This document shows positions 8,686 through 45,297 of a stretch of 64,000 nt of DNA, piece after piece. The notes under the pieces were generated by a model that made no database searches, had not been told where the DNA came from, and saw only the letters and a program-made list of their open reading frames with translations. Each line of letters opens with the position of its first letter. Positions within the stretch are counted from its first letter, which is position 1. A program made the position numbers and the translations under genes. The DNA comes from an uncultured delta proteobacterium (lineage in GTDB: Bacteria > Myxococcota_A > Polyangia > Polyangiales > Houyiibacteriaceae): assembly GCA_963704865.1 (NCBI GenBank), contig CAVPIE010000014.1, positions 69,937 to 133,936 of the forward strand. The letters run 5' to 3'.

Positions 8686-10776
8686 CTATTGGTCGAATCT
8701 GCGAAGCTGGTCGTCGAAGCTCCGGACGCCTTCCTTGGCTTTTGCAAGTTCGATGAAGCGTGGAAGTTCTCCGGAGTTGGCGCTCTGCTGCTCGAGCGTT
8801 GCGAGGTCGACGGGGGCGTTGGATTCGTATGCGCGAAGGGCATCCAAGACCGTTCGGAGCTCGGGAGGCAGTGCGGCAAGGTCGTTGGGCGTTTCACCAA
8901 ACCCGAGGGCATATCGGGCCAGCCGCGTTTTGGCGTCACTTGGGAGACTCGTCCGCGAAAGCGTTTCGCGCAGCGTTTCGAGCACGGCGCCTAGCTTGCC
9001 GGCGTCCGCGACGGATGGGTCCTGAGCCAACTCGCGCAGCGACTGCGCGATACGCCCCTGCGCCGCGACCAATCGGAGCCGAAGGTTCTCGGACAGGGGG
9101 TGCAGCGAAATGGAGCCAATGGCCTGGTCCTGCAGGATCTGCATGGCGGCGTCGATGTTGCCGAGGCGCGCTTCTACAGTGGCGCACGGAAGGGCATATT
9201 GAAAGTCGTCATTTAGAAAGTCGCCGGATTCCTGCGGTGTGAGCTGCATCAGCCAGGGCGGGCTTCCGCGATACGCGAACGCACCATCGCGGGCCATCTG
9301 AGCATACGCGCTCTGCAGTGCGAGCAAGGTGCTTTGTTCATCCGGGCTCGTCCGAAACGCAAGGGCCCAGGCGAGATCTTTGGTAGCCCGCAGCTGATCG
9401 TCGCGTACACAGCTGCGGGCCGCCAGCGCTTGCGCTTGCTCGAGGTACTCGAATCCGCTTTTTTGGAGGCCGGCGCGGGTTCGCGCAGTGCCAACGGCAT
9501 GCAGGGCGAACGGGTTGTCCGGGTTCCGCGTCACCTCGTATTCCCAAAGCGAAGACGACGAGGCGAAGACTCGCGAATGAAGTGACGTCACGACTGCAAA
9601 ACCCAAGACCACCACAGAAGCAACGATAGCGACCGTCTTCCCGAGCGTTGCGCGCTTCCGGAACATCATCAGGAGCCCGCGAGCGAAAAGCGACGCGACC
9701 CCGAGCATCGGAAGGTAGAGAAAACGGTCCGCCGTGAGATTTCGGCTGCCGAGGTCGATCAGGTTCGCCACCGGCAGCAGCGGAACGACCACCCATAGTG
9801 CGTCGGCGAACACCGGGCGCCATGCATGCCTGCGGTACGCGACGACGCCAAGCAGGATCACCACAGCGAGGACTACGGTCCCCCCGATCCACCACGCGGC
9901 CGGCAGGACCTCGCCGCCCTCGCATTCGTAGAGACGCATTCCAGGGAAGGCAGTCGGATTCCAAGGCGAGAAGATCTGCTGCGCGTACAAACCAAACGAC
10001 GCCAGAGCCCTCGGTAGCGCGCCGCGGGTCGGCCCGCTTGGAAGCGCGACGTCGATGATCCAAACGCGGGCGAGCAGCGCGACGACCACCGGCGCGATGA
10101 GTGCGATCGATGCCGAGCGCTCGCGACGTCCCTGCAGCAAGAATCGATCGGCCAAGAGCAAGGGTGCCCCGACGATCGCCGATTCCTTTGCGAACAGCGC
10201 CAGGGCGAGCAGAATCCCGGCGAGCCAACTGCGGCGCGAGTCAAACGCGAGGGCGGCCAAGAGGACCAGCGCGCACATCCAGAGCTCGGTGCTTCCCGAT
10301 ATCCACGAAACCGCCTCGGCGCGGCTTGGATGAAGCGCGAAGACGGCGGCGCCGAGGCCGACGGCAAGCAAGCGATGGGCCTCTTCGCCGGGCGGGATGC
10401 GTCGTCGCAGCCAGAAAAACGCGAGGACGCAGCAAAGTAAGTGAAGCGCCAGACTGACCGCACGGTACCCGGCGGCGTGCAGACCGAACAGGCGGAACTG
10501 AGCGATGTACGCGAACGTGACGATCGGCCTGTAGAGGTGATTGTAGGTCTCGTTGGCTTGCGCGGCGTCGCTCGAAACGTTCCAGAAGTGACTGGTCAGA
10601 GCTTCGCCATAGCGCTCGGGACTCTGAATGTTCTCGTTCGTACGGATCAGGCCGTTGTCATCCCAGGTGAACTCATCGCTGAGCCCCGGGATGAAAACCA
10701 AAACCGTGAGAAGAGCGAGAAGGATCGACGCAGCGCCCCACCAACGTTCCAAAGCCACCAGGCCATCGTATCTCAT
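8686..10776 (-). CDS. TMTC/PMT_2-like polytopic membrane glycosyltransferase-like protein with C-terminal TPR repeats
   Basis: N-terminal FTWDDNGLIRTNENIQSP motif, about 10 TM helices, C-terminal TPR-like helical repeats. Confidence 0.75.
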   Translation of the reverse strand: MRYDGLVALERWWGAASILLALLTVLVFIPGLSDEFTWDDNGLIRTNENIQSPERYGEALTSHFWNVSSDAAQANETYNHLYRPIVTFAYIAQFRLFGLHAAGYRAVSLALHLLCCVLAFFWLRRRIPPGEEAHRLLAVGLGAAVFALHPSRAEAVSWISGSTELWMCALVLLAALAFDSRRSWLAGILLALALFAKESAIVGAPLLLADRFLLQGRRERSASIALIAPVVVALLARVWIIDVALPSGPTRGALPRALASFGLYAQQIFSPWNPTAFPGMRLYECEGGEVLPAAWWIGGTVVLAVVILLGVVAYRRHAWRPVFADALWVVVPLLPVANLIDLGSRNLTADRFLYLPMLGVASLFARGLLMMFRKRATLGKTVAIVASVVVLGFAVVTSLHSRVFASSSSLWEYEVTRNPDNPFALHAVGTARTRAGLQKSGFEYLEQAQALAARSCVRDDQLRATKDLAWALAFRTSPDEQSTLLALQSAYAQMARDGAFAYRGSPPWLMQLTPQESGDFLNDDFQYALPCATVEARLGNIDAAMQILQDQAIGSISLHPLSENLRLRLVAAQGRIAQSLRELAQDPSVADAGKLGAVLETLRETLSRTSLPSDAKTRLARYALGFGETPNDLAALPPELRTVLDALRAYESNAPVDLATLEQQSANSGELPRFIELAKAKEGVRSFDDQLRRFDQ

Positions 10777-18422: not shown

Positions 18423-19312
18423 GCGACGCCTACTACGCAATCGTCAACCGAACGGCGGCTGGCGGACGGTGCGCAAAAGCCGCACCGGAGGCCCTCGATG
18501 CATTGGAGCATCGCGGACTGTCGCTGAAGGTCGCGTTTACCGAGGAGCCGAAGCACGCGACTGAGCTCGCAAGGCGCGCAGCCAGTAACGGTTGTCGGCG
18601 TTTTCTTTCGGTCGGCGGTGATGGAACTGCCGCCGAGGTCGTCAACGGACTCATCGCCTCCGGCGTTGCTGGCGAATGCGCGCTGGCCATGCTTCCGCTC
18701 GGAACGGGCAACTCCTTTTTGCGCGACTTCGGTATCGCCGACCTTCAAGTCGCCGCCGATGCGATCGTTCGAGGCAAGAGCACCCCCATCGACGTGCTCC
18801 GCCTGACGCACGAAGACGGCGTCCTGCATTTCATCAATACGATGGGGACCGGTTTCGTCGCGCGCGCCGGCGAGCTCACCAACGAGCGCTTCAAATTTCT
18901 CGGTGCAGCGGGGTATGTTGCTGCAGTCCTGGTTTGCGTCGTGCGGCTCCGGTACGAAGAGAACACGCTTCGCTATGCGGGCGCGACCGATGAGGCGCGC
19001 ACGGTCCTCAGCTCGTTCTCCAACAGCCAGTACACGGGTGGTTCGATGCGGATGGCGCCGGATGCTCGAGTCGCCGACGGCCTGCTCGACGTCGTTCGGG
19101 CCGGGCCGCTCCGCAGAGCTGCCCTCGTGAGCGCGTTCGCCCGCATCTTTTCGGGAACGCACACCGATCTCGATCAGGTCTGGACGCGGCAAGTCGACCG
19201 GGTGGAATTCGTGAACCCCGCATTTCAAGCCGTGCTGATCGACGGCGACCTCTACCACCTGACGCCCCTTGCGATCGATGTCCTTCCTTCGGCAATCCAG
19301 CTCATCGCATGA
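18419..19312 (+). CDS. diacylglycerol-kinase-family lipid kinase (YegS/BmrU-like)
   Basis: GTG start overlaps the upstream stop (GTGA). GGDGT motif (SVGGDGTAAEVVNGL). LPLGTGNSF. Confidence 0.85.
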   Translation: MSDAYYAIVNRTAAGGRCAKAAPEALDALEHRGLSLKVAFTEEPKHATELARRAASNGCRRFLSVGGDGTAAEVVNGLIASGVAGECALAMLPLGTGNSFLRDFGIADLQVAADAIVRGKSTPIDVLRLTHEDGVLHFINTMGTGFVARAGELTNERFKFLGAAGYVAAVLVCVVRLRYEENTLRYAGATDEARTVLSSFSNSQYTGGSMRMAPDARVADGLLDVVRAGPLRRAALVSAFARIFSGTHTDLDQVWTRQVDRVEFVNPAFQAVLIDGDLYHLTPLAIDVLPSAIQLIA

Positions 19313-20055
19313 CGGAGACCACGACAGCTCGGGATCGAATCGTGAGCCTGTTCATCTGGGTTTTCGCCGGCGGCTTCCTGGTGCTGAGCCTGTCATTTTT
19401 GACGATCCTCTACCAGTTCGTGAAGCCGGACCGCGTTCAGCCCCTCGAACGCCTCTACTGCAAGCTCCAACTCGCACTCACGTTCAACCGGCAGCGCCAC
19501 GACGTGCATCCCGACGTCGACCCCGGCACCGCGTACATTTTCATTCAGAATCACAGCAGCCATCTCGATCACGTCGCGATGTACACGTCTACACCGCATT
19601 TCAAACAAGGCATCGAGCTCGAGAGCCACTTCGACTACCCCTTCTACGGCTGGTTCATGAAGGCGCGCGGAACCATTCCTGTTCCCAAGGATCGAGCAGG
19701 CGCACTCGACGCGCTCCGCGAGGCGGTTCATACCGAAGTCGATGCCGGGCATTCGATCCTCGGCTTTCCGGAGGGACACCGAACCAAGACCGGTCACGTG
19801 GGCCCCTTTTACGACGGCCTGTTTCGAATCGCGATCGAGCTCGGCGTGCCCATCGTGCCCGTCGCGGTGACAGGCCTTTTCGAAGTGCTTCACAAGGGCT
19901 CGCTCGTCATTCGCGCCGGCAACGAAATCAGCGTTTGCGTAGAAGAGCCGATTGCCACCGAAGGTCTCACCGAGCAGGACATCGCGAGCCTACGGGACCG
20001 AGTGCGGGACGCGATTGCAAGCAGGGTCGACGCGCATTTGGAGGCGCTCGCTTGA
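19309..20055 (+). CDS. plsC: 1-acyl-sn-glycerol-3-phosphate acyltransferase family (PlsC-like)
   Basis: ATGA overlap with the lipid kinase gene. HxxxxD box (NHSSHLDH) and FPEGHRT box. Confidence 0.85.
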   Translation: MTETTTARDRIVSLFIWVFAGGFLVLSLSFLTILYQFVKPDRVQPLERLYCKLQLALTFNRQRHDVHPDVDPGTAYIFIQNHSSHLDHVAMYTSTPHFKQGIELESHFDYPFYGWFMKARGTIPVPKDRAGALDALREAVHTEVDAGHSILGFPEGHRTKTGHVGPFYDGLFRIAIELGVPIVPVAVTGLFEVLHKGSLVIRAGNEISVCVEEPIATEGLTEQDIASLRDRVRDAIASRVDAHLEALA

Positions 20056-20065
20056 GCCAGCCGAC

Positions 20066-21145
20066 CTATTCGGCCGCGGCCGCTTCGACCGCCTGAAGCA
20101 AGCTCTTTGGAAAGACGCGCCCCGTCATTCGGTCCCGCACTTTTTTGGCAGCTGCGTCCCACTCGGCCTTGTACTGGCTCGTATCGGTCGCAGTGATCCC
20201 CTTGGTGAGGACGACATCGTAGGCCTTCTGGTCGTCGCGGCGAATCGTCTTGCTGAGCAAGACCTCAACGCGCTCGCAGGTCCGCAAGAACGTTGCCTTG
20301 AGGTCCGCCGGAAGCGCGTTGACCTTCTCTTTACGCATCACCATGCCACCCGCGATGATCGCCGAGTTGTGAGCCGTCATGTACTTGACGCGCGTGTACC
20401 ACTGAAGTGCAACCGCCGTGAGCGCGGAAGACGTCACCACGTCGACCATCTTGGTCTGAAGCCCGGGGTACACTTCGTTTACGCCCAGTCGAACGCCATT
20501 GGCTCCGATCACGTCGTAGAACTCGATGAAAACCAGGTCGTCTTTCCACATCCATGGTCGCATCGACTTGATGTCCGAGGGCTTTTCGATCGCCTTTTGT
20601 GAAAAGAGCCGCGTCTTTCCCGCGTCTCCCCAGGCCAACATCATGAAGCCTTCGTCGTCGAAGAGCTTCTCGAAGTCCGCGGCCATCTTGGTTCGCACTC
20701 GGTCCAGCTTCTCGTAGGTATCGAGGAAGTTCGGCAGGACCAAGATCACCATTGGCCTCACAAGCATGCTCATTCCGGTCATCGTGACGACGCCGCCGTC
20801 GAGCTGCCCCACGCGCATCTTTCGAACGAAGTCACGCTCATCGCCTTGCGCGCCGCCCGGGTAGAAACGCAGCTTCAACCGACCTTCCGTCTCGCTTTCG
20901 AGAGTCTTCTTCCAGGCGTTGAGGACCTTCATCCACGACGAGCCGGCAGGCGCGAGGGAGGCAATACGGAAGGTGACGGCCTCTTCGGCGCGACTGCTCG
21001 GGACGCTACCTGGCAACCCCACGAGGACGACCGCCAGAAGTACGACAAACGCGAAACCTCGGTTCACGGAACGGCATATACCCGGACCTGGCCGCCCGCG
21101 TCCAGCGTGGGGTGCACCAGGCTGTCCGCCGCGCCCTTCTTGCAC
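20066..21145 (-). CDS. TRAP-type periplasmic solute-binding protein (DctP family), orphan
   Basis: DctP-like sequence throughout. The true start is probably the GTG at 21067 (VNRGFAFVVLLAVVLVG signal peptide). No dctQ/dctM adjacent. Confidence 0.8.
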   Translation of the reverse strand: MQEGRGGQPGAPHAGRGRPGPGICRSVNRGFAFVVLLAVVLVGLPGSVPSSRAEEAVTFRIASLAPAGSSWMKVLNAWKKTLESETEGRLKLRFYPGGAQGDERDFVRKMRVGQLDGGVVTMTGMSMLVRPMVILVLPNFLDTYEKLDRVRTKMAADFEKLFDDEGFMMLAWGDAGKTRLFSQKAIEKPSDIKSMRPWMWKDDLVFIEFYDVIGANGVRLGVNEVYPGLQTKMVDVVTSSALTAVALQWYTRVKYMTAHNSAIIAGGMVMRKEKVNALPADLKATFLRTCERVEVLLSKTIRRDDQKAYDVVLTKGITATDTSQYKAEWDAAAKKVRDRMTGRVFPKSLLQAVEAAAAE

Positions 21146-21666: not shown

Positions 21667-23268
21667 ATGTCGAATGTTGTATCGAAGGAAGGGCCACGCA
21701 GCCCGTTCCCAGTTGCCGATTTGAAGGCAGGTTTCTTAGTTTTCCTGATCGCCCTTCCCCTCTCCCTGGGGATCGCGATGGCCAGTGGATTCCCCCCGAT
21801 CGCGGGCGTTCTGACCGCGATCATCGGAGGGGTCATCGTCACGTTTCTCGGTAGCGCACGCCTGACGATCAAGGGGCCCGCGGCCGGACTCATCGTCATC
21901 GCATTGGGGGCGGTACAAGAGCTTGGGGGAGGAGATCCGATGCTCGGCTACCGTCGAGCCCTAGCGGTCGGGACGGTCGCCGCAGGCGTGCAAATTGCGT
22001 TCGCCCTCCTTGGCGCCGCCTCGATCGGCGTAGCGATGTCTCCCTCTGTGGTCCACGGCATGTTGGCCGCCATCGGTGTGATCATCATCTCGAAGCAAGT
22101 GCACACCCTGTTGGGCGTAGCGCCGGAGGCCAAGGAACCATTGGAGTTGCTCGCCGAAATTCCGAAGAGCATCGCGCATGCCAATCCCGAGATACTGATC
22201 CTTGGTGCTCTCTCGCTACTCATCCTTTTTGGATGGCCTCTGATTCGGACGCGATGGGCAAAAGCCATCCCGGCTCCGGTGCTGGTCCTCGCGGTGGCAG
22301 TGCCACTGAGCTTGTGGCTCAATTTGGACCACTCGCACGCCTATCAGTTTCTATCGCACCAGTTCCACGTTGGGCCGGAGTTCCTGGTGCAACTACCGGG
22401 CTCGCTCCTCGACGCGTTCGTATTCCCGGATTTTTCGATGGTGTTCAGTGCCGCGTCCCTGAAATACGTAGTGATGTTCGCCCTGGTCGGAACGATCGAG
22501 TCGACCTTGAGCGTGCTCGCAGTCGACTCGATGGACCCGGAGAAGCGCCCGTCGAATCTGAATCGTGATCTCCTGGCTCTTTCTTTGGGGAACCTCTGTT
22601 CGTCTCTGGTCGGCGGGCTTCCGATGATTTCCGAGATCGTTCGAAGCAAAGCGAACGTCGATGCTGGCGCGCAGTCCCGATGGGCGAACTTTTTTCATGG
22701 CGCATTTCTGCTGACATTCGTCGCTCTGGCTCCCGGCTTGCTGCACGAAATTCCGCTCGCGGCCTTGGCGGCAATGCTGGTCTACACCGGCGCACGACTC
22801 GCATCACCCCGTGAGCTGTGGCACGTCAAACAGATCGGTCTGGATCAGCTCGCCCTCTTCGTCACTACACTCATCATCACTCTCGCGACCGACCTTCTAA
22901 TTGGCGTCGCAGCCGGCCTCGTGCTCAAGGTCATTTTGCACCGCGTCCGCGGGGCGACTTTCAGCCAGATCTTCCGTGCGCGCGTCGAGAAGAGTCAGCA
23001 AGGCTCCGAATTGCGCTTGACGCTGCACGGTGCAGCGGCTTTCACGAGCCTCATCTCGGTCAGGAAGTCCCTCGCGGATCTCGATCCTTCCTGCCGGAAA
23101 GTGGTGATCGATGTGAGCGACGCCGCGATCGTTGACCATACGTTCTTGAGTCGCCTCGAGGGTCTATCCAACGAGTGGCCGAATGTGGAATTGGAGGTGG
23201 TGGGGATCGAGGCACTGACGCCGCATTCGCCGCATCCGCACTCAACCCGTCGAAGGACCGCTTCATGA
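21667..23268 (+). CDS. SulP-family anion transporter with C-terminal STAS domain (sulfate/bicarbonate permease type)
   Basis: Typical SulP N-terminus (DLKAGFLVFLIALPLSLGIAMASGFPPIAGVLTAIIGG), about 10-12 TM helices, STAS-like tail (ELRLTLHGAAAFTSLISVRKSL..VVIDVSDAAIVDHTFL). The stop overlaps the dabA ATG. Confidence 0.9.
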   Translation: MSNVVSKEGPRSPFPVADLKAGFLVFLIALPLSLGIAMASGFPPIAGVLTAIIGGVIVTFLGSARLTIKGPAAGLIVIALGAVQELGGGDPMLGYRRALAVGTVAAGVQIAFALLGAASIGVAMSPSVVHGMLAAIGVIIISKQVHTLLGVAPEAKEPLELLAEIPKSIAHANPEILILGALSLLILFGWPLIRTRWAKAIPAPVLVLAVAVPLSLWLNLDHSHAYQFLSHQFHVGPEFLVQLPGSLLDAFVFPDFSMVFSAASLKYVVMFALVGTIESTLSVLAVDSMDPEKRPSNLNRDLLALSLGNLCSSLVGGLPMISEIVRSKANVDAGAQSRWANFFHGAFLLTFVALAPGLLHEIPLAALAAMLVYTGARLASPRELWHVKQIGLDQLALFVTTLIITLATDLLIGVAAGLVLKVILHRVRGATFSQIFRARVEKSQQGSELRLTLHGAAAFTSLISVRKSLADLDPSCRKVVIDVSDAAIVDHTFLSRLEGLSNEWPNVELEVVGIEALTPHSPHPHSTRRRTAS

Positions 23269-38290: not shown

Positions 38291-38758
38291 TCAGCGCGAC
38301 TTCTTCTCGGCAATCTTTCGGCGGCACACTTTGTTGATGAGCCGCAGCTCTTCAATCTTTTCGTCGATCTGCCGCTTCTTGTCTTGGAGCTCGGCGATCA
38401 TCTCTGCGCTTCGCGCCGCCGAAATCTCGAGTTGCTTCAGGCGGCCCTCACCGTGTTGGCCATAGAGGTCGAGGTAGTCCTTGGTCTCCTCGAGCGTATA
38501 GCCGAGCGACTTCGCGCGAACGATGATGTGCAGGCGCGCACGATCGCGACGCGCGTAGATTCGAGCGCCGTTCAGCCTCTTTGGCGAAAGCAAGCCTTTG
38601 GACTCGTAGAAACGGATCGCACGATGGCTGATCGCAAACTCGTCTGCGAGGTCCGAAATCGAGAACAATTCGGTCTTCTGACCCTCCCCGTGGGCCTCGA
38701 CGAACGCCTTTACCGTGTCGTTCCGAGCAGTTCTCTTCGAAGCCGAGGCCATCGGCAC
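38291..38758 (-). CDS. MerR-family transcriptional regulator (LiuR-like)
   Basis: HTH FSISDLADEFAISHRAIRFYESKGLL, followed by a coiled-coil dimerisation helix. Confidence 0.85.
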   Translation of the reverse strand: MPMASASKRTARNDTVKAFVEAHGEGQKTELFSISDLADEFAISHRAIRFYESKGLLSPKRLNGARIYARRDRARLHIIVRAKSLGYTLEETKDYLDLYGQHGEGRLKQLEISAARSAEMIAELQDKKRQIDEKIEELRLINKVCRRKIAEKKSR

Positions 38759-38877: not shown

Positions 38878-39735
38878 ATGGACAAGGCGATCATCACCTG
38901 TGCGCTGAACGGCGTGCTCACCAACCCGAAACAGCACCCTGTGCCCGTGACTCCCGAAGAAATGGCCACATCGGCGCGGGACGCTTACAACGCGGGCGCC
39001 TCGATCGTGCACATCCATTTTCGCCGCCAGGAGCCGGGCATGGGGCACTTTCCGTCCTGGGATCCGGGAGTTGCCGCGGCAGCGAGCGATGCCATCCGCG
39101 AGGCCTGCCCTGGCATCATCATCAATCAGACGACGGGCGTGATCGACGAGGATGTCTCGGGGCCGATCGCCTGCCTTCATCGAATCAAGCCAGAGATCGC
39201 CGCCTGCAACGCGGGCAGCCTCAACTACCTGAAGCTCAAGAGGGACAACACCTGGGCCTGGCCTCCGATGGTGTTTCTCAACAGCGTCGACAAGGTCCAA
39301 AAGATGCTGGATGCGATGAAAGAGACGCACACCACCGCAGAGATGGAGTGCTTCGACGTGGGCATCGTTCGTTCGGTCGGGCTCTATCTTAGAGCCGGGA
39401 TGGCCAAGGAGATGCACTACAACTTCGTCATGGGTGTCGCATCGGGGATGCCTTGCGATCCAGAGCTGCTCGAGCTCCTCATGAAGTACAAGAGCGGCGA
39501 CGCCCACTGGCAAGCGACGCTCATCGGCCGCGAAGACATCTGGAAAACGCACCAGCGGGCCGCCGAGCTCGGAGGCATGCTCCGAACTGGCGTCGAGGAC
39601 ACCTTCTACCTGCCGAACGGTGACAAAACGACCGGCAACGGACAGCTGATCGAAGCGCTGGCCGAGTGCGCGCGCAATGCTGGCCGAGAGGTCGCATCAC
39701 CGACCGAAGCCAGAGAGATGCTGGGCTTCAACTAG
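38878..39735 (+). CDS. beta-keto acid cleavage enzyme (BKACE/DUF849, 3-keto-5-aminohexanoate cleavage family)
   Basis: Hallmark N-terminus MDKAIITCALNGVLTNPKQHPVPVTPEEMA and IVHIHFR. Confidence 0.85.
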   Translation: MDKAIITCALNGVLTNPKQHPVPVTPEEMATSARDAYNAGASIVHIHFRRQEPGMGHFPSWDPGVAAAASDAIREACPGIIINQTTGVIDEDVSGPIACLHRIKPEIAACNAGSLNYLKLKRDNTWAWPPMVFLNSVDKVQKMLDAMKETHTTAEMECFDVGIVRSVGLYLRAGMAKEMHYNFVMGVASGMPCDPELLELLMKYKSGDAHWQATLIGREDIWKTHQRAAELGGMLRTGVEDTFYLPNGDKTTGNGQLIEALAECARNAGREVASPTEAREMLGFN

Positions 39736-39779: not shown

Positions 39780-40484
39780 ATGGCCAGCAAGGTGTACCCA
39801 GACGCGATCTCCGCCCTCGATGGGCTGCTCCGCGACAAGATGACCCTCATGTCCGGAGGTTTCGGCCTGTGCGGAATCCCCGAGGCGCTGATCGAAGCCG
39901 TTGCGAAGTCAGGTGTAAAGGGCCTGACGGTGATCTCCAACAACGCGGGTGTCGATGGCATCGGCCTCGGCGTGATGTTGGAAACCCGGCAGATCGTGAA
40001 GATGGTTTCATCGTACGTGGGTGAAAACAAGCTCTTCGCCAAGCAGTTCCTCGACGGCGATTTGACGGTGGAGTTCAACCCACAGGGCACCCTGGCCGAG
40101 CGGATCCGCGCTGGTGGCGCTGGGATACCGGCGTTTTTCACGAAGACCGGTGTCGGGACCTCGGTCGCCGAGGGCAAAGAGGTGCGCGAGTTCGACGGCG
40201 AGTCGTACGTGATGGAGCGCGGCCTCGTCGCGGACCTGGCGATCGTGCATGCGTGGAAAGGCGATACGGAAGGCAATCTCATCTACCGAAAGACCGCACG
40301 AAACTTCAACCCCATGATGGCCACCGCCGGCAAAGTGACGGTTGCCGAAGTCGAGCATCTCGTCGAGCCGGGCGAGCTGGCGCCCGATCAGATCATGACC
40401 CCGGGCATCTACGTCGATCGCATCATTCACTACCCAGCTCCCTCGAAGCACATCGAGCAACGGACCACGCGCCCGCGCGCCTGA
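39780..40484 (+). CDS. scoA: 3-oxoacid CoA-transferase subunit A
   Basis: [11 protein letters not shown] and VSSYVGENK motifs; length is typical. Confidence 0.9.
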
Positions 40485-40494
40485 GGAGAAGACG

Positions 40495-41142
40495 ATGGCT
40501 TGGACCCGCGACCAAATGGCTGCACGTGCCGCGCGAGAGCTTCGCGACGGCTTCTACGTGAATCTCGGAATCGGCATACCGACCCTCGTCTCGAACCACA
40601 TTCCGGCGGGGATGACCGTGCAGCTGCAAAGCGAAAACGGCATGCTCGGAATGGGCCCGTTCCCTTACGAAGGCGACGAGGACGCGGACTTGATCAACGC
40701 CGGAAAGCAGACGGTGACCGAGCTGCCCACCACGAGCTTTTTCTCGAGCGCCGAGTCGTTTGCCATGATTCGTGGCGGGCACATCGATCTTTCGATCCTC
40801 GGGGCGATGCAGGTTGCGGAAAACGGCGACCTCGCGAACTGGATGATCCCCGGAAAGATGGTGAAGGGGATGGGCGGCGCCATGGATCTGGTCGCGGGCG
40901 TGCCTCGGGTTGTCGTCGTGATGGAGCACACGGCCAAGGGAAAGCCCAAGCTCCTGAAGCGCTGCACCCTGCCACTTACCGGCACCCACGTGGTCGACTT
41001 ACTCATCACCGACCTGGGTGTCTTCGAAATCGACAAGAAGGGCGGCGGGGGCATGACCCTCGTCGAGCTGGCGGACGGCGCCACCCTCGAGCAAATCGCC
41101 GAGACCACCGAGGGGGCGTACAGCGTCGCCGCTGGGCTCTAA
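40495..41142 (+). CDS. scoB: 3-oxoacid CoA-transferase subunit B
   Basis: VNLGIGIPT, catalytic-Glu motif [18 protein letters not shown]. Confidence 0.9.
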
Positions 41143-42464
41143 CCAAAAAGCCAAAGAACCAAGCCGACGTAGAGCCCCATGCCGATCGCGAGAATTGCGG
41201 TGTAGCCGGCGATCTGGCGAGCCTTGAGGCCGGTGATCGCAAGCAGCGGCAGGGCCCAAAACGGCTGTAAGAGGTTCGTCCACTCGTCGCCATAGGCAAA
41301 GGCCATGACGGTGCGCGCGGGATCGAGCTCGAGGGAGGCAGCCGTGGTGAGCAACACGTCACTTTGGAGCGCCCACTGACCTCCGCCCGAGGGCACGAAG
41401 AAATTCACCAAGCCCGCACTCAGGAACGTCAGCAGGGGAAAGGTGCTGCTGGACGCGATGGAAGCCATGGCCGATGAAAGCCGCTCGATCATTCCGCTCG
41501 CCTGCATCACGCCGAGGATGCCGAAATACAAAGGGAACTGAACGATGATGGCCCCCGCGCCGCGCGCCCCGTCCGAGACCGAATCGAGAAAACTCCGAAT
41601 CGAGCCGTGCGCGGCAAGCGCCAGCGCCAAGAAGAAGAGATTCACGGAGTTGAGATCGAACGCGACTTCCCCACGAACCCAGCCGTAGCCGACGAGCAGC
41701 ACGGCCGCGCCGCCAACGCCGAGTACCAGAACCGAGTGCTTACCCCGTTGCGATGCGACGGCACGCACCACTGGGACCTCTGGAACCAGTGCGGTTTTCG
41801 GTGCAAGCGCAATGCACATCAGTGGCAACAAGATCAGTAAGCCACCGGTGACGACGAGATTCAGCGACGAGAAGAGCGTTTCGCTGACGGGGATCCCCTG
41901 CGTCGTGCCCTGCGTGAACTGCGCCGATTCGGCCGCCTTCAAGGGAGCCGAGCCGCTGAGGCCGCCATGCCATACCGCGAGCCCAGCGTACGCAGCAGCT
42001 CCGAGCACGGGAATGTCCATCGGCCGGCCGTCTTCTGCAGCGCTGTGCGCGATCTCCCGAACCACGAACGCGGCGACGACGGCTCCGAGACCCCATTGGA
42101 TGACGCCGGTTAGGCAGGCGATGAGCGCGACCAAGCCAGCGGCCTGCGGCGTCCGCTTGGGCACGCGTGCGACCGCCCGGACCACGCTCTGCACCGGGGG
42201 GCTCGCCGCCAAGGCCTGGCCGGTCACCAAGATCAGGCACATTTGCAGCGCAAAGGCGAGTAGCGGCGTGCTCGAAAAGCCTCCGTACCAGCCCTGAAGC
42301 ACCGTCGCGACGGACCCCGAGAGCACGAAGCCTCCGAGAAGCGCAATCGAGGTCAGCGCGAGCACGAGGACGAATGGATCGGGAACCCAACGTTCGGCCC
42401 ACCGGCTGAAAACCTCACCAAGCCGAGCCAGCATGGCACGGACCATAGCACCAAGCGCCACCAT
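41139..42464 (-). CDS. atoE: short-chain fatty acid transporter (AtoE family)
   Basis: Strong resemblance to E. coli AtoE along its length ([15 protein letters not shown].., [44 protein letters not shown]). The ATG at 42464 overlaps the PP2C stop (TGATG). Confidence 0.85.
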
Positions 42465-43270
42465 CAACGGCGGCGGCGAATTGCGATGAAGGTCAGGTCG
42501 TCGGGCTTCGAGGGAGCGCCTTCGGTCGGCGCCTCCATGCGTCGACGCCCGAGGGTGGCCAAGTCGTCGACGGCCCTCGAAAGCGGCCCTTTGCGCAGGT
42601 GCTCCACAATCTCGTTCACGTGAAGGTTGTCACTGAGCCCGTCGCTGGCCAAAACGACCGTATCGCGCCGCGCCAAACTGAGCGTCGCACCGAGCTCGAT
42701 TCGCATCTCCTTCGCGCCCAAGAGGTTGGATACGATGTGAAGGTCTTCGTGGTGCAGTGCGTCTCCCGCATCCAGCAAGCCCGCCTCGACTGCGTAGCCA
42801 ACCGGAGAGTGCGGGATGGTCCGCCACTTGATGCGTCCGCGCTGCCCGGTCACGAGCACCATTGAGTCGCCCGCGTGATAGGACCGCATCTTGTGGCCCT
42901 GCACTTCGACGACCGCGAGGGTGGCCGCGGCGCCCGTTCCGAGCGCAGAGATCGCACGATCCGCCGATTCGAAGCCGTTGATGATTGCTCCGCGCAGGTC
43001 CGCGGGCTCTGCACCGAGCTTCGCAACGGATTCACAGACCGCCTGCACCGCGAGCTTCGCCGCTTCGGCGCCGCCCGGATGACCACCGGCCCCATCGGAC
43101 ACCACCGCGACACCGGCCTCGTCGCCAATCGAGATCAAGCCCGCGGCGTCCTCGTTCGGGCCCTCTCGTTCGGGTTTCCGAATGCTGAGCACCACCGCCT
43201 CGCAGCCGCCAAGCTCGAAGCGCTCTCCCTGCGCCATGTCCACATCTACGAAGATGTGGGCTTTGCTCAC
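42464..43270 (-). CDS. PP2C-family Ser/Thr protein phosphatase
   Basis: GPNEDA, VSDGAGGHPGG, LASDGLSD motifs. The GTG start overlaps the kinase stop (GTGA). Confidence 0.85.
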   Translation of the reverse strand: MSKAHIFVDVDMAQGERFELGGCEAVVLSIRKPEREGPNEDAAGLISIGDEAGVAVVSDGAGGHPGGAEAAKLAVQAVCESVAKLGAEPADLRGAIINGFESADRAISALGTGAAATLAVVEVQGHKMRSYHAGDSMVLVTGQRGRIKWRTIPHSPVGYAVEAGLLDAGDALHHEDLHIVSNLLGAKEMRIELGATLSLARRDTVVLASDGLSDNLHVNEIVEHLRKGPLSRAVDDLATLGRRRMEAPTEGAPSKPDDLTFIAIRRRR

Positions 43271-44127
43271 AGCGACGCTCTCTTGCTTCGTGTGGTGCTT
43301 CGAAGCGCCTTGGGCGCCACCGCTTGAAACGCCCGCTGCATCTGCACGCCGTCCCGAAATCGTTTGCGCTCCCGAACTTCAATCGCCCGGCGAAGAAAAC
43401 CGATGAAATCCCGGCTGACCGTGCGGCGAAGCCTTTCGGCCCCGGGCAGCGGCCAATCAAACGGCCAGGCGGGGAGCTCGCCGGCAAACATGCGATAGAT
43501 CAGCAGGCCCATCGAGAACACATCCGATCGAAACGACGGCTTGCCCATCGCTTGCTCGGGCGCGATGTAGCCAACGGTGCCTTGCCCGGAACCCATGATC
43601 GTTCGCGTCCGCAGCGCGACCTTCGCGATGCCGAAATCGGACAGGCGCACGTGCCCCTCCGGAAAGAGGATCACGTTGTCAGGCTTGATATCGCAGTGAA
43701 TGACTCGAACCTCGTGGGCGTACGCGAGAGCATCGACCAGCTGCTCGGTGTACGAAAGCGCGGTTTTCGCGCCGAGGCGGTAGTGCAAGCGGTCGGTCAG
43801 CGTCTGCTCCCCGAGCGGAGTCGCAAGCACCAAATGACCATCGATCATCATGGCATTTCGGAGCGGCAGGATGTTCTCGTGGTCCAGGCGTGCGGTGAGA
43901 CGGACCTCACGCTGGATGGCGTTCAGCGATTCCTTGTCGAGATGGTCGAGGTTCGGAACTTTGAGCGCGATGGGAATGCCCTCGATCGTGTCGTACGCCT
44001 CGTACACGGTCGCAAACCCACCGGCGCCGATTCGGCGTCGAATGCGGTACTTTCCAAGCACCTGCCGGGCTTTGAGTGGCTGAGTCGGTACGGCGATGTG
44101 CTTGCCGTGAAGAACGTGAGGTTTCAT
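43267..44127 (-). CDS. Ser/Thr protein kinase, kinase domain only, non-RD type
   Basis: GAGGFATVYEA..IALK, HCDIKPDNV (Cys in place of the RD Arg), SDFGIAK, YIAPEQ. No TM or sensor domain. Confidence 0.9.
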   Translation of the reverse strand: MKPHVLHGKHIAVPTQPLKARQVLGKYRIRRRIGAGGFATVYEAYDTIEGIPIALKVPNLDHLDKESLNAIQREVRLTARLDHENILPLRNAMMIDGHLVLATPLGEQTLTDRLHYRLGAKTALSYTEQLVDALAYAHEVRVIHCDIKPDNVILFPEGHVRLSDFGIAKVALRTRTIMGSGQGTVGYIAPEQAMGKPSFRSDVFSMGLLIYRMFAGELPAWPFDWPLPGAERLRRTVSRDFIGFLRRAIEVRERKRFRDGVQMQRAFQAVAPKALRSTTRSKRASL

Positions 44128-44137
44128 GGGCGAACGC

Positions 44138-45145
44138 TCAGAATGTCTTACGGATCGCCTTCAAGAGTGCAACCCCCTCGGGGCCCATCTCTTTCGCGAT
44201 ACGGTCCGGAACGCCCTTCTGCTTCGCCTTGAAGGCCGCAAGCTCCGCCTCCGTGGGCTCGTAGATTTCGTACCCGTAGCGCGCCAAGTTCTTGAGCAAG
44301 ACCGGCTCTATCTTTCGGACTTGGTCTCGCCCCCACACGGTGAGGTCGTGGGGCATGGTGGTGATTACTTCCTGGATGTCCTTTGGAAGGGTGTCGAACC
44401 ACTTTTTGGAGTAAACGAGCAGCGCGGGCTGGTAGCAATGGCGGCTGAGGAAGATGTGGCGCTCGCCTTCCTTGAGACCCTGGTACCAACTGGCCGCCAT
44501 CGCAAAGAGCGGCGTGTTGTCGAAACCGTCGACGACTCCGGTCTGCACACTCATCAGCGTATTGCCGTTGTCGATCGGGACCGGAGTCGCGCCGAATGCC
44601 TCGTAGGTTTCGACATGCACCATCGATTCTTGCGAACGGAACCGAATCCCGGCCATGTCGCTGGGTTTGCGGATTTTCTGGTTACTGAAGTAGGACCGGT
44701 ATCCGTTCTCTGCCCATATCCCGAAGATGAGCCCTCGCTTTGCAAGGACCTTCTTGACCTGTTCGGTGACCTCGGGCGTGTCGAGCGCCTTATCCGCGCT
44801 GGCAAAGGTCTCGAAGACGTACGGGGCCTCGATGACATTGACCTCTCGAACGATCGAGCTCATGCCGCCGACGGAGCCAGCAAACGCTTGCATGCTGCCC
44901 ATCTGAACCCTGCGCGCCATCGACCGCTCGTTGCCGCGCCCGAGCCGAAGCTTCACTTTCAACCGACCGTTGGTCTTTTCCTGGACCTCGGCCTTGAAAC
45001 GTTGAAGCTGTTCGGCCCATGGGCTTCCTTTTGGAGCCACGGTGCCGACCTCCATGATGAACTCCGGATCTTCCGCGGTCGCGGGGCCGACGATGGTCAA
45101 GGATAGGGCGAGCAGCGCTCCGGAAAAGAAGATCGATCTACGCAT
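44138..45145 (-). CDS. TRAP-type periplasmic solute-binding protein (DctP family), orphan
   Basis: Signal peptide MRRSIFFSGALLALSLTIVGPATA. DctP-like sequence. No dctQM present. First gene of the kinase/phosphatase/atoE operon. Confidence 0.85.
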   Translation of the reverse strand: MRRSIFFSGALLALSLTIVGPATAEDPEFIMEVGTVAPKGSPWAEQLQRFKAEVQEKTNGRLKVKLRLGRGNERSMARRVQMGSMQAFAGSVGGMSSIVREVNVIEAPYVFETFASADKALDTPEVTEQVKKVLAKRGLIFGIWAENGYRSYFSNQKIRKPSDMAGIRFRSQESMVHVETYEAFGATPVPIDNGNTLMSVQTGVVDGFDNTPLFAMAASWYQGLKEGERHIFLSRHCYQPALLVYSKKWFDTLPKDIQEVITTMPHDLTVWGRDQVRKIEPVLLKNLARYGYEIYEPTEAELAAFKAKQKGVPDRIAKEMGPEGVALLKAIRKTF

Positions 45146-45297
45146 GAGGCACTTTCTAGTCAGTTGGGGAGGGGAAATAAAGAACCAAAGTCTTTGGGCG
45201 GCTCACGGATCGCTGACCTTAGCGGAATTCTCAGCGCCCGTCTTGCGCCGGGCGTGTCTGGATTTGACCGCCGCGTCGTCTGGCCCAGAATCTCCGC

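Follow-up and report, generated by a model that had tools for sequence, protein, structure and literature searches.

A compact DctP-kinase-PP2C-AtoE operon in an uncultured member of the Polyangiales, probably a clade-specific juxtaposition of three separable modules

Organization and transcription of the operon

The stretch of DNA analysed here (the window) comprises 64,000 bp of contig CAVPIE010000014.1 (positions 69,937 to 133,936 of the forward strand; assembly GCA_963704865.1) from an uncultured delta-proteobacterium of the Polyangiales, and carries on its minus strand four consecutive genes encoding a DctP-family periplasmic binding protein, a Hanks-type Ser/Thr kinase (STK), a PP2C/PPM phosphatase and an AtoE-family short-chain fatty acid carrier. 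Comparison with related loci points, with moderate confidence, to a clade-specific juxtaposition of three separable modules that arose through the loss of intervening genes, and not to a dedicated machine. Coordinates are window positions (Table 1) and were derived from open reading frame (ORF) calls, profile searches with Pfam and NCBI-type models and direct reading of the junctions. They agree with the original prediction, made from the sequence alone, which had described four co-directional minus-strand genes of these families with their junctions, including a kinase of 286 aa that consists of the catalytic domain only and has HCD in place of HRD.

The DctP gene ends with a TGA stop that is followed after 10 nt by the ATG of the kinase gene. 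The kinase stop and the PP2C start, a GTG, share the GTGA at 43267-43270, and the PP2C stop and AtoE start lie inside TTGATG (42462-42467), where the likely AtoE ATG (42464) and the PP2C stop have one base in common. The AtoE stop (TAG, 41139-41141) overlaps the scoB stop (TAA, 41140-41142), so that the operon converges with a tail-to-tail overlap of 4 nt, as originally described, on a BKACE-scoA-scoB module of beta-keto acid cleavage and 3-oxoacid CoA-transferase genes facing AtoE. The operon promoter presumably lies in the interval that separates DctP from the divergent SYLF lipoprotein gene; a simple promoter/terminator scan returned no minus-strand sigma70-like site and no internal minus-strand terminator.

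Transcription was assessed from assembled metatranscriptome contigs, in which carry-over of DNA is possible. Each of the four genes is matched by contigs of close relatives (90-99% identity), and coverage is deepest for DctP. Three of them span the DctP/STK junction (44078-44488, 43913-44159 and 44061-44311) and one the STK/PP2C junction (43223-43373), so that transcription in situ was observed across two junctions; no contig clearly spans the PP2C/AtoE junction, which is reached just by contig ends or partial matches. The four genes form a compact, expressed operon.

Table 1. Genes of the operon, of the facing CoA-transferase module and of the upstream intergenic region.
Feature	Position	Strand	Length	Profile matches and remarks
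DctP-family periplasmic binding protein	44138..45145	-	335 aa	PF03480 E 1.5e-54; NF037995 TRAP_S1 208 bits (cut-off 50)
Hanks-type Ser/Thr kinase (STK)	43267..44127	-	286 aa	Pkinase E 1.1e-39
PP2C/PPM phosphatase	42464..43270	-	268 aa	PP2C_2 E 2.4e-14; Stp1/IreP-like E 3e-23, under that model's cut-off
AtoE-family short-chain fatty acid carrier	41139..42467	-	442 aa (441 aa from ATG at 42464)	SCFA_trans E 7.6e-102
scoB	40495-41142	+		TIGR02428 314 bits, over cut-off
scoA	39780-40484	+		TIGR02429 248 bits, over cut-off
BKACE	38878-39735	+		BKACE E 2e-82
MerR-family regulator	38291..38758	-		MerR_1 E 1.4e-14; divergent from BKACE
Intergenic region, DctP to divergent SYLF lipoprotein gene	45146..45297		152 nt	

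Conservation of gene order

A DctP alignment used to scan genomes, one per species, gave 80 loci (referred to by L numbers), onto which homologues of 17 genes of the neighbourhood were mapped, and nine further contexts reached from DctP, kinase and AtoE homologues were added; the module map itself comprises the 80 genome loci and six additional contexts. By its homologues and by sequencing runs, the window is placed among uncultured Polyangiales/Myxococcota from marine and estuarine sediment. Two contigs (L034 and L058) are labelled 'uncultured Coxiellaceae bacterium' and have DctP genes nested inside Myxococcota clades of the tree; they are probably mis-binned, or their bin is mislabelled.

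The crown-group loci share a block with the organization GFA-SYLF-(ACS)-DctP-(..sigma54 activator)-STK-PP2C-(AstE-GshB-like-U5)-(hydrolase)-AtoE/scoB-scoA-BKACE-MerR-ACAD, in which genes in brackets are optional, the slash marks the convergent junction and ACS is a FadD11-like fatty-acid-CoA ligase. Every optional part is gone from the window and its nearest relatives. The order DctP-STK-PP2C-AtoE was found in the window and in 11 other species-level loci (L005-L008, L012-L014, L017, L019, L021 and L047), all of which belong to a single crown clade of the Polyangiales; in at least 13 loci the order is disrupted. Its conservation had been put forward as a check on the original prediction: the order is indeed not unique to this genome, but it is confined to one clade and repeatedly broken. 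In a maximum-likelihood tree of DctP the compact form appears in several subclades of one crown group of 38 rows, and ten earlier-branching or more divergent orthologues (72-77% identical), falling in two clades, have DctP alone.

The breaks separate the same units in different ways. DctP-STK-PP2C is found without AtoE, with the flanks kept, in L010, L023 and L025; inserts of 4-8 kb part DctP from STK in L020, L022, L031 and L032; L035 has DctP and AtoE and lacks the kinase pair; and in L033 DctP directly adjoins scoB. STK-PP2C is found on the same block as AtoE/scoB without DctP in L086-L088, and AtoE/scoB-scoA-BKACE-MerR without DctP, STK and PP2C in L089 and L090, at an AtoE identity of 70-75%. 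In L010, L025, L033 and L040 the syntenic block has no AtoE but keeps a DctP 81-94% identical to that of the window, AtoE persists without DctP in L086-L090, and in GCA_039177115.1, the assembly carrying L090, the DctP orthologue and AtoE lie on different contigs. Only two linkages are invariant, namely STK-PP2C and AtoE/scoB-scoA-BKACE-MerR, and every junction between modules is breakable.

The AtoE and CoA-transferase unit

AtoE matches PF02667 over residues 12-439 of 442 with 342 bits (cut-off 27), with a secondary DcuC match, and scores 340 bits against TIGR00366, under the cut-off of 575.75 of that model. A hydropathy count gave about eight hydrophobic segments, and a sequence search against solved structures returned no match even at E <=1. 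An AlphaFold model built from 36 homologues (pLDDT 81, pTM 0.82) found as its best fold matches YdaH/MtrF, VcINDY and other DASS carriers, ArsB, and the TRAP proteins IseQM/SiaQM, at TM scores of 0.5-0.63. As modelled, AtoE is an elevator-type carrier of the IT superfamily, the fold class of TRAP-M.

The most conserved unit of the locus is AtoE/scoB-scoA-BKACE-MerR, which is kept at 70-75% AtoE identity, as expected from the original matching of AtoE to the adjacent CoA-transferase pathway. MerR stays beside BKACE in L089, L090 and most crown-group loci. The tail-to-tail overlap of AtoE and scoB is kept as well, at 4 nt in L085, L086, L088 and L090 and at 17 nt in L089; its persistence down to an AtoE identity of 70% is unusual for a convergent junction.

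The kinase/phosphatase pair

The replacement of HRD by HCD, invariant in 27 orthologues, makes the kinase a non-RD kinase; these orthologues also conserve the G-loop, catalytic Lys, DFG and APE, and neither a transmembrane segment nor an extra domain was found. The phosphatase keeps the metal-binding motifs NED, DGxGG and DG. All of the 120 closest kinase homologue clusters listed are at least 81% identical, PP2C directly follows STK in every locus that reaches past the kinase gene, and the GTGA overlap is kept in relatives. Co-organization of kinases and phosphatases is rare in myxobacteria, whose kinome synteny is poor (PMC2887360). Because the coupling and this level of identity are kept against such a background, STK-PP2C is, to judge from its motifs and conservation, a genuine conserved switch.

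The target of this switch is not fixed by gene context. A divergent sigma54 activator with a receiver domain (Response_reg, Sigma54_activat and HTH_8) adjoins STK-PP2C in L020, L022, L031/L085 and L088, AstE/GshB-like genes lie downstream in L022, L025, L032 and L086-L088, and in such arrangements AtoE either lies ~4.6 kb away or is lacking. Only some members of the clade have DctP upstream or AtoE downstream. Across loci the pair is not consistently accompanied by any one candidate substrate gene, and PP2C is the only constant neighbour of the kinase. The sigma54 activator is a candidate for an ancestral partner or target of STK; no histidine kinase was called near it in the annotated 8-10 kb flanks of L085 and L088.

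These observations bear on the proposal that STK and PP2C reversibly phosphorylate AtoE, ScoAB/BKACE or their regulator and thereby gate the uptake of short-chain or keto acids. The pair is co-transcribed upstream of AtoE and adjoins it, directly or with one hydrolase gene in between, in 13 loci including the window (the four-gene set and L031); by their motifs both enzymes appear catalytically intact and they are strongly conserved; in Myxococcus xanthus, pkn4 lies in an operon with pfk, which encodes its substrate, and the rarity of kinase-phosphatase co-organization in myxobacteria (PMC2887360) makes the pair a likely dedicated switch. Yet its neighbours change, to the point that L010, L023 and L025 have no AtoE at all, the AtoE/scoBA unit exists without STK-PP2C in L035, L089 and L090, and the central loop of AtoE (~225-262) is its least conserved segment, of low model confidence, with no hint of a conserved phospho-acceptor there. 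Gating of AtoE thus receives no support from the comparative evidence, in which the pair keeps only itself as a constant neighbour, and we consider it unlikely. If true, it would be a rare bacterial instance of a carrier gated by Ser/Thr phosphorylation.

The binding protein and its missing local permease

DctP starts with a Sec-type signal peptide, for which cleavage was read from the sequence between MRRSIFFSGALLALSLTIVGPATA and ED. In alignment with 4pdd, a solved TRAP binding protein, its residues R170 and N210 fall on the Arg and Asn of that protein, and both are invariant in 13 orthologues; we take them to be the clamp for the substrate carboxylate, as equivalents of R147 of SiaP and of the Asn of the DGxxN motif. 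The nearest solved relatives are generic TRAP binding proteins, and a ligand assignment from them was rejected, identity being just ~30%. A structure model of DctP was discarded as well (pLDDT 53 from a 13-sequence alignment).

The same genomes hold a DctP paralogue, 63-70% identical, in a housekeeping neighbourhood. In 34 of the 36 paralogue loci the co-directional gene upstream of it encodes the TRAP T-component TatT (PF16811, E 8e-25), which matches the palmitate-bound TatT of Enhygromyxa salina (PDB 8g52) with E 6e-43. The TatT-TatP pairs (34 genomes, L050-L084; e.g. L064:8969-11014, where the paralogue was identified by ORF calling and Pfam) lie between rimP/nusA-like and enolase-like genes. 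No protein of the window matches PF16811, TatT having been seen only beside the 63-70% paralogue. The operon DctP is accordingly placed, from sequence comparison, as a sister paralogue of TatP, which serves TatT-type TRAP systems as P-component. Long-chain fatty acids are the ligands bound by TatT proteins, and the P-components of the TatT-type systems (TPAT) have hydrophobic clefts (PMC11713862; PMC5812351).

A second pointer to the ligand lies upstream of the operon gene. In 16 loci (L013, L015, L017-L021, L024, L027-L032, L035 and L047; see also L085:8098-9951) the ligase gene ACS (E 5.5e-123) lies directly upstream of the DctP orthologue, co-directional and at a distance of ~50 nt. Where present it takes the place of the 152-nt region upstream of DctP; it is absent in the closest clade of the window, where it appears to have been lost. 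Because of the TatT-linked paralogue and the FadD11-like ligase neighbour, the ligand of DctP is most likely a fatty or otherwise hydrophobic carboxylate.

The original prediction had also noted that the window contains no dctQ/dctM. None of its multi-transmembrane proteins is DctQ or DctM; they comprise SulP, Mrp-like, SBF, P-type ATPase, CDF and MscS proteins, a CDP-alcohol transferase and one protein of 696 aa without family match (8686-10776, minus strand; ~9 predicted transmembrane segments, no Pfam match). The same applies more widely: no DctQ/DctM was found within 10 kb of ~76 loci of DctP orthologues or paralogues (~1.2 Mb of flanks, 26 membrane-protein clusters), and no TatQM within 10 kb of the TatT-TatP pairs of L050-L084, unlike the canonical TPAT, which is encoded in a single T-P-QM operon (PMC5812351). 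A third, distant DctP of 359 aa is encoded in the window at 20066-21145 (minus strand; PF03480 E 1.1e-34), 24% identical to the operon DctP, with a Met at the canonical Arg position in a pairwise alignment and likewise no DctQ/DctM nearby; its gene faces a PlsC-like acyltransferase gene (19309-20055) in convergent orientation, with a SulP permease gene (21667-23268) close by. Since the orthologue, the TatT-TatP paralogue and this third DctP all lack DctQM in reach, the lack of a local permease for DctP genes characterizes the lineage and is not a peculiarity of this operon, and the orphan state noted at the locus holds.

Next to DctP in L038 and L039 a protein of 586 aa with ~13 transmembrane segments was suspected to be a fused DctQM and turned out to be a SulP-STAS permease, whose gene is convergent with that of the DctP orthologue (L038:10660-12420). 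SulP is thus found near both this orthologue and the distant DctP of the window; SulP carriers are also of the elevator type, and the proximity is probably a coincidence.

The missing local permease may have a conventional explanation, in which DctP and TatT-TatP serve DctQM/TatQM encoded elsewhere in the genome, perhaps in the way that a small number of TctAB permeases serve the many Bug/TctC binding proteins. In the TTT family, lone binding proteins are known to draw on a limited pool of membrane subunits (PMC5812351), and lone TRAP binding proteins are acknowledged (PMC12344293); the TatT-TatP pair is conserved in the same genomes, and by published figures roughly three quarters of TatTs are associated with TRAP PQM components (PMC11713862). 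Approximately 25% of TatTs, on the other hand, have non-PQM partners (PMC11713862), and the ~1.2 Mb flanking the 76 DctP loci contain no QM. We regard this classical but unlinked TRAP system as quite possible, if somewhat short of probable; it is compatible with a reading of the operon as three merged modules.

Possible coupling of DctP to AtoE

A bolder answer was given by the original prediction, in which DctP hands its ligand to AtoE, the two forming a new binding-protein-dependent secondary transporter; such a system would be analogous to TAXI-GltS. The lack of DctQM within 10 kb of any DctP orthologue or paralogue examined would fit this, as would the modelled fold of AtoE, which is the IT-superfamily elevator fold common to TRAP SiaQM/IseQM. 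Jaques et al. propose that an elevator fold permits the use of a binding protein (PMC12344293), and AtoE, as modelled, possesses this structural precondition, which is not evidence of such use. L035 keeps DctP and AtoE as neighbours without the kinase pair, and the substrate themes match, with a fatty or short-chain acid binder, a short-chain fatty acid carrier and CoA-activating enzymes.

The case for TAXI-GltS was built on translationally coupled genes, their recurrence in diverse bacteria and the existence of natural fusions (PMC12344293). DctP and AtoE, by contrast, are never adjacent or translationally coupled, two genes lying between them, and their linkage does not recur outside one clade. 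No fusions were found among the best 150 of 2303 AtoE representatives (317-542 aa) or among 120 close AtoE homologues, which have only PF02667, with or without PF03606. Each gene is kept without the other, DctP being intact in the four loci where AtoE is missing from the block, and the two lie on different contigs in GCA_039177115.1. The TatT-TatP paralogue also has no QM nearby and no AtoE near it either, so that having no partner nearby is a feature of the lineage and is not tied to AtoE. A literature search for DctP together with AtoE returned nothing relevant. The comparative evidence therefore does not support the proposal. The shared elevator fold, seen in the model, makes a coupling structurally plausible, yet neither a fusion nor wide recurrence goes with it, and we judge it improbable. 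A wider version is conceivable, in which the lineage has no TRAP QM at all and its DctP/TatP-type proteins (the operon DctP, TatT-TatP and the distant copy) would pass fatty or short-chain acids on to an elevator carrier of a non-TRAP kind, AtoE being the best candidate, and in which the non-RD kinase and PP2C might read the occupancy of the carrier as a trigger transporter; we consider this a long shot.

An operon probably formed from merged modules

Of the interpretation first given to these genes, the compact operon, the absence of a local partner for DctP, the match of AtoE to the CoA-transferase genes and an order that is not unique all stand, whereas transport by DctP and AtoE together and gating by the kinase receive no comparative support. 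The reading that we favour, of three separable modules, would work as follows. In the first module, AtoE, which belongs with the convergent genes BKACE-scoA-scoB-MerR, would carry short-chain or keto acids; BKACE would form acetoacetate from a beta-keto acid and acetyl-CoA, and ScoAB would turn acetoacetate or short acids into CoA thioesters, following the logic of E. coli atoDAE. The second module, STK-PP2C, is by its motifs a self-contained, translationally coupled and catalytically intact non-RD switch. In the third, the TatP-derived DctP would bind a fatty or hydrophobic carboxylate in the periplasm and pass it to a membrane component encoded elsewhere, the usual operon partner in relatives being the FadD11-like fatty-acid-CoA ligase. 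Loss of ACS, the sigma54 activator, the AstE/GshB-like genes and the hydrolase in the clade of the window would then have merged the modules into one transcription unit. The modules so joined are co-expressed and share a coherent theme, namely the capture, import and CoA-activation of organic acids, probably without an obligate physical coupling between them.

Several observations weigh against this reading. DctP and STK are adjacent in ~20 of the 30 crown-group loci that are informative, and three subclades still have all four genes in order; this could reflect selection for co-expression and with it a functional link of some kind. No IT-superfamily carrier other than AtoE recurs near DctP, and AtoE shares the fold class of TRAP-M. 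Every DctP-type gene of the lineage was seen without local QM, and if the genome has no QM the partner must be non-TRAP. Lastly, deletion rather than insertion is suggested by parsimony on a tree that is partly unresolved.

Read as merged modules, the locus shows how gene loss can join independent units, with translational coupling, into an operon that seems to have been built for a purpose. It also yields a functional prediction for widespread, uncharacterised proteins of marine-sediment myxobacteria, which are TatP-like, are paired with a ligase in relatives and are likely to bind fatty acids, and it flags a lineage in which all the DctP-type proteins seen lack a local permease, a potential lead on non-TRAP partners.

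Comparison with known systems

The classical arrangement for the carrier is the E. coli atoDAEB operon, in which AtoE is linked to the acetoacetyl-CoA transferase AtoDA; AtoE-like carriers linked to scoAB are of the same kind. In the window, too, a PF02667 carrier is tightly linked to both subunits of a 3-oxoacid/acetate CoA-transferase, but the genes are convergent with a 4-nt tail overlap instead of co-directional, the partners are BKACE and MerR instead of the thiolase AtoB and AtoSC, and this clade has genes for a binding protein and a kinase/phosphatase pair upstream of the carrier gene.

For the switch, an operon in which a kinase is encoded together with its experimentally shown substrate is known from Mycobacterium tuberculosis (PknF-Rv1747), a precedent of the same kind as pkn4-pfk. 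The operon described here resembles M. xanthus pkn4-pfk in that it combines the gene of a Hanks-type kinase with that of a metabolic or transport protein which the kinase could regulate; the link between Pkn4 and its substrate was, however, shown by experiment and is syntenic across myxobacteria (PMC2887360), whereas STK has PP2C as its sole constant neighbour, and STK-PP2C occurs with and without AtoE, DctP and scoAB, not linked to one same substrate gene across species.

The binding protein is closest to the TPAT systems (Treponema pallidum TatT-TatP(T)-TatQM; E. salina TatT 8G52), being 63-70% identical to a P-component preceded by TatT and sharing the theme of a hydrophobic or fatty-acid ligand, backed here by the FadD11-like ligase neighbour. 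It differs in having neither TatT nor TatQM adjoining, and the paralogous T-P pair has no adjacent QM either; T. pallidum TatP was not among the best 60 solved-structure matches for the DctP profile. The lone Bug/TctC binding proteins of Bordetella and AdpC of Rhodopseudomonas palustris (TTT family) are similar in that several per genome occur without a nearby membrane partner (PMC5812351), but these belong to the TctC and not the DctP family, and just a few DctP copies per genome have been seen so far in the lineage of the window.

TAXI-GltS of Bordetella pertussis (BP0403-BP0402) differs from the locus described here, where DctP and AtoE are two genes apart in a linkage limited to one clade and often broken, and where no fusions were found. 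The two are alike in that a TRAP-family binding protein without local TRAP membrane genes is encoded near an elevator carrier of another family (PMC12344293), and if DctP and AtoE did work together they would join TAXI-GltS as the second instance in which a different family of carriers has recruited a TRAP-family binding protein.

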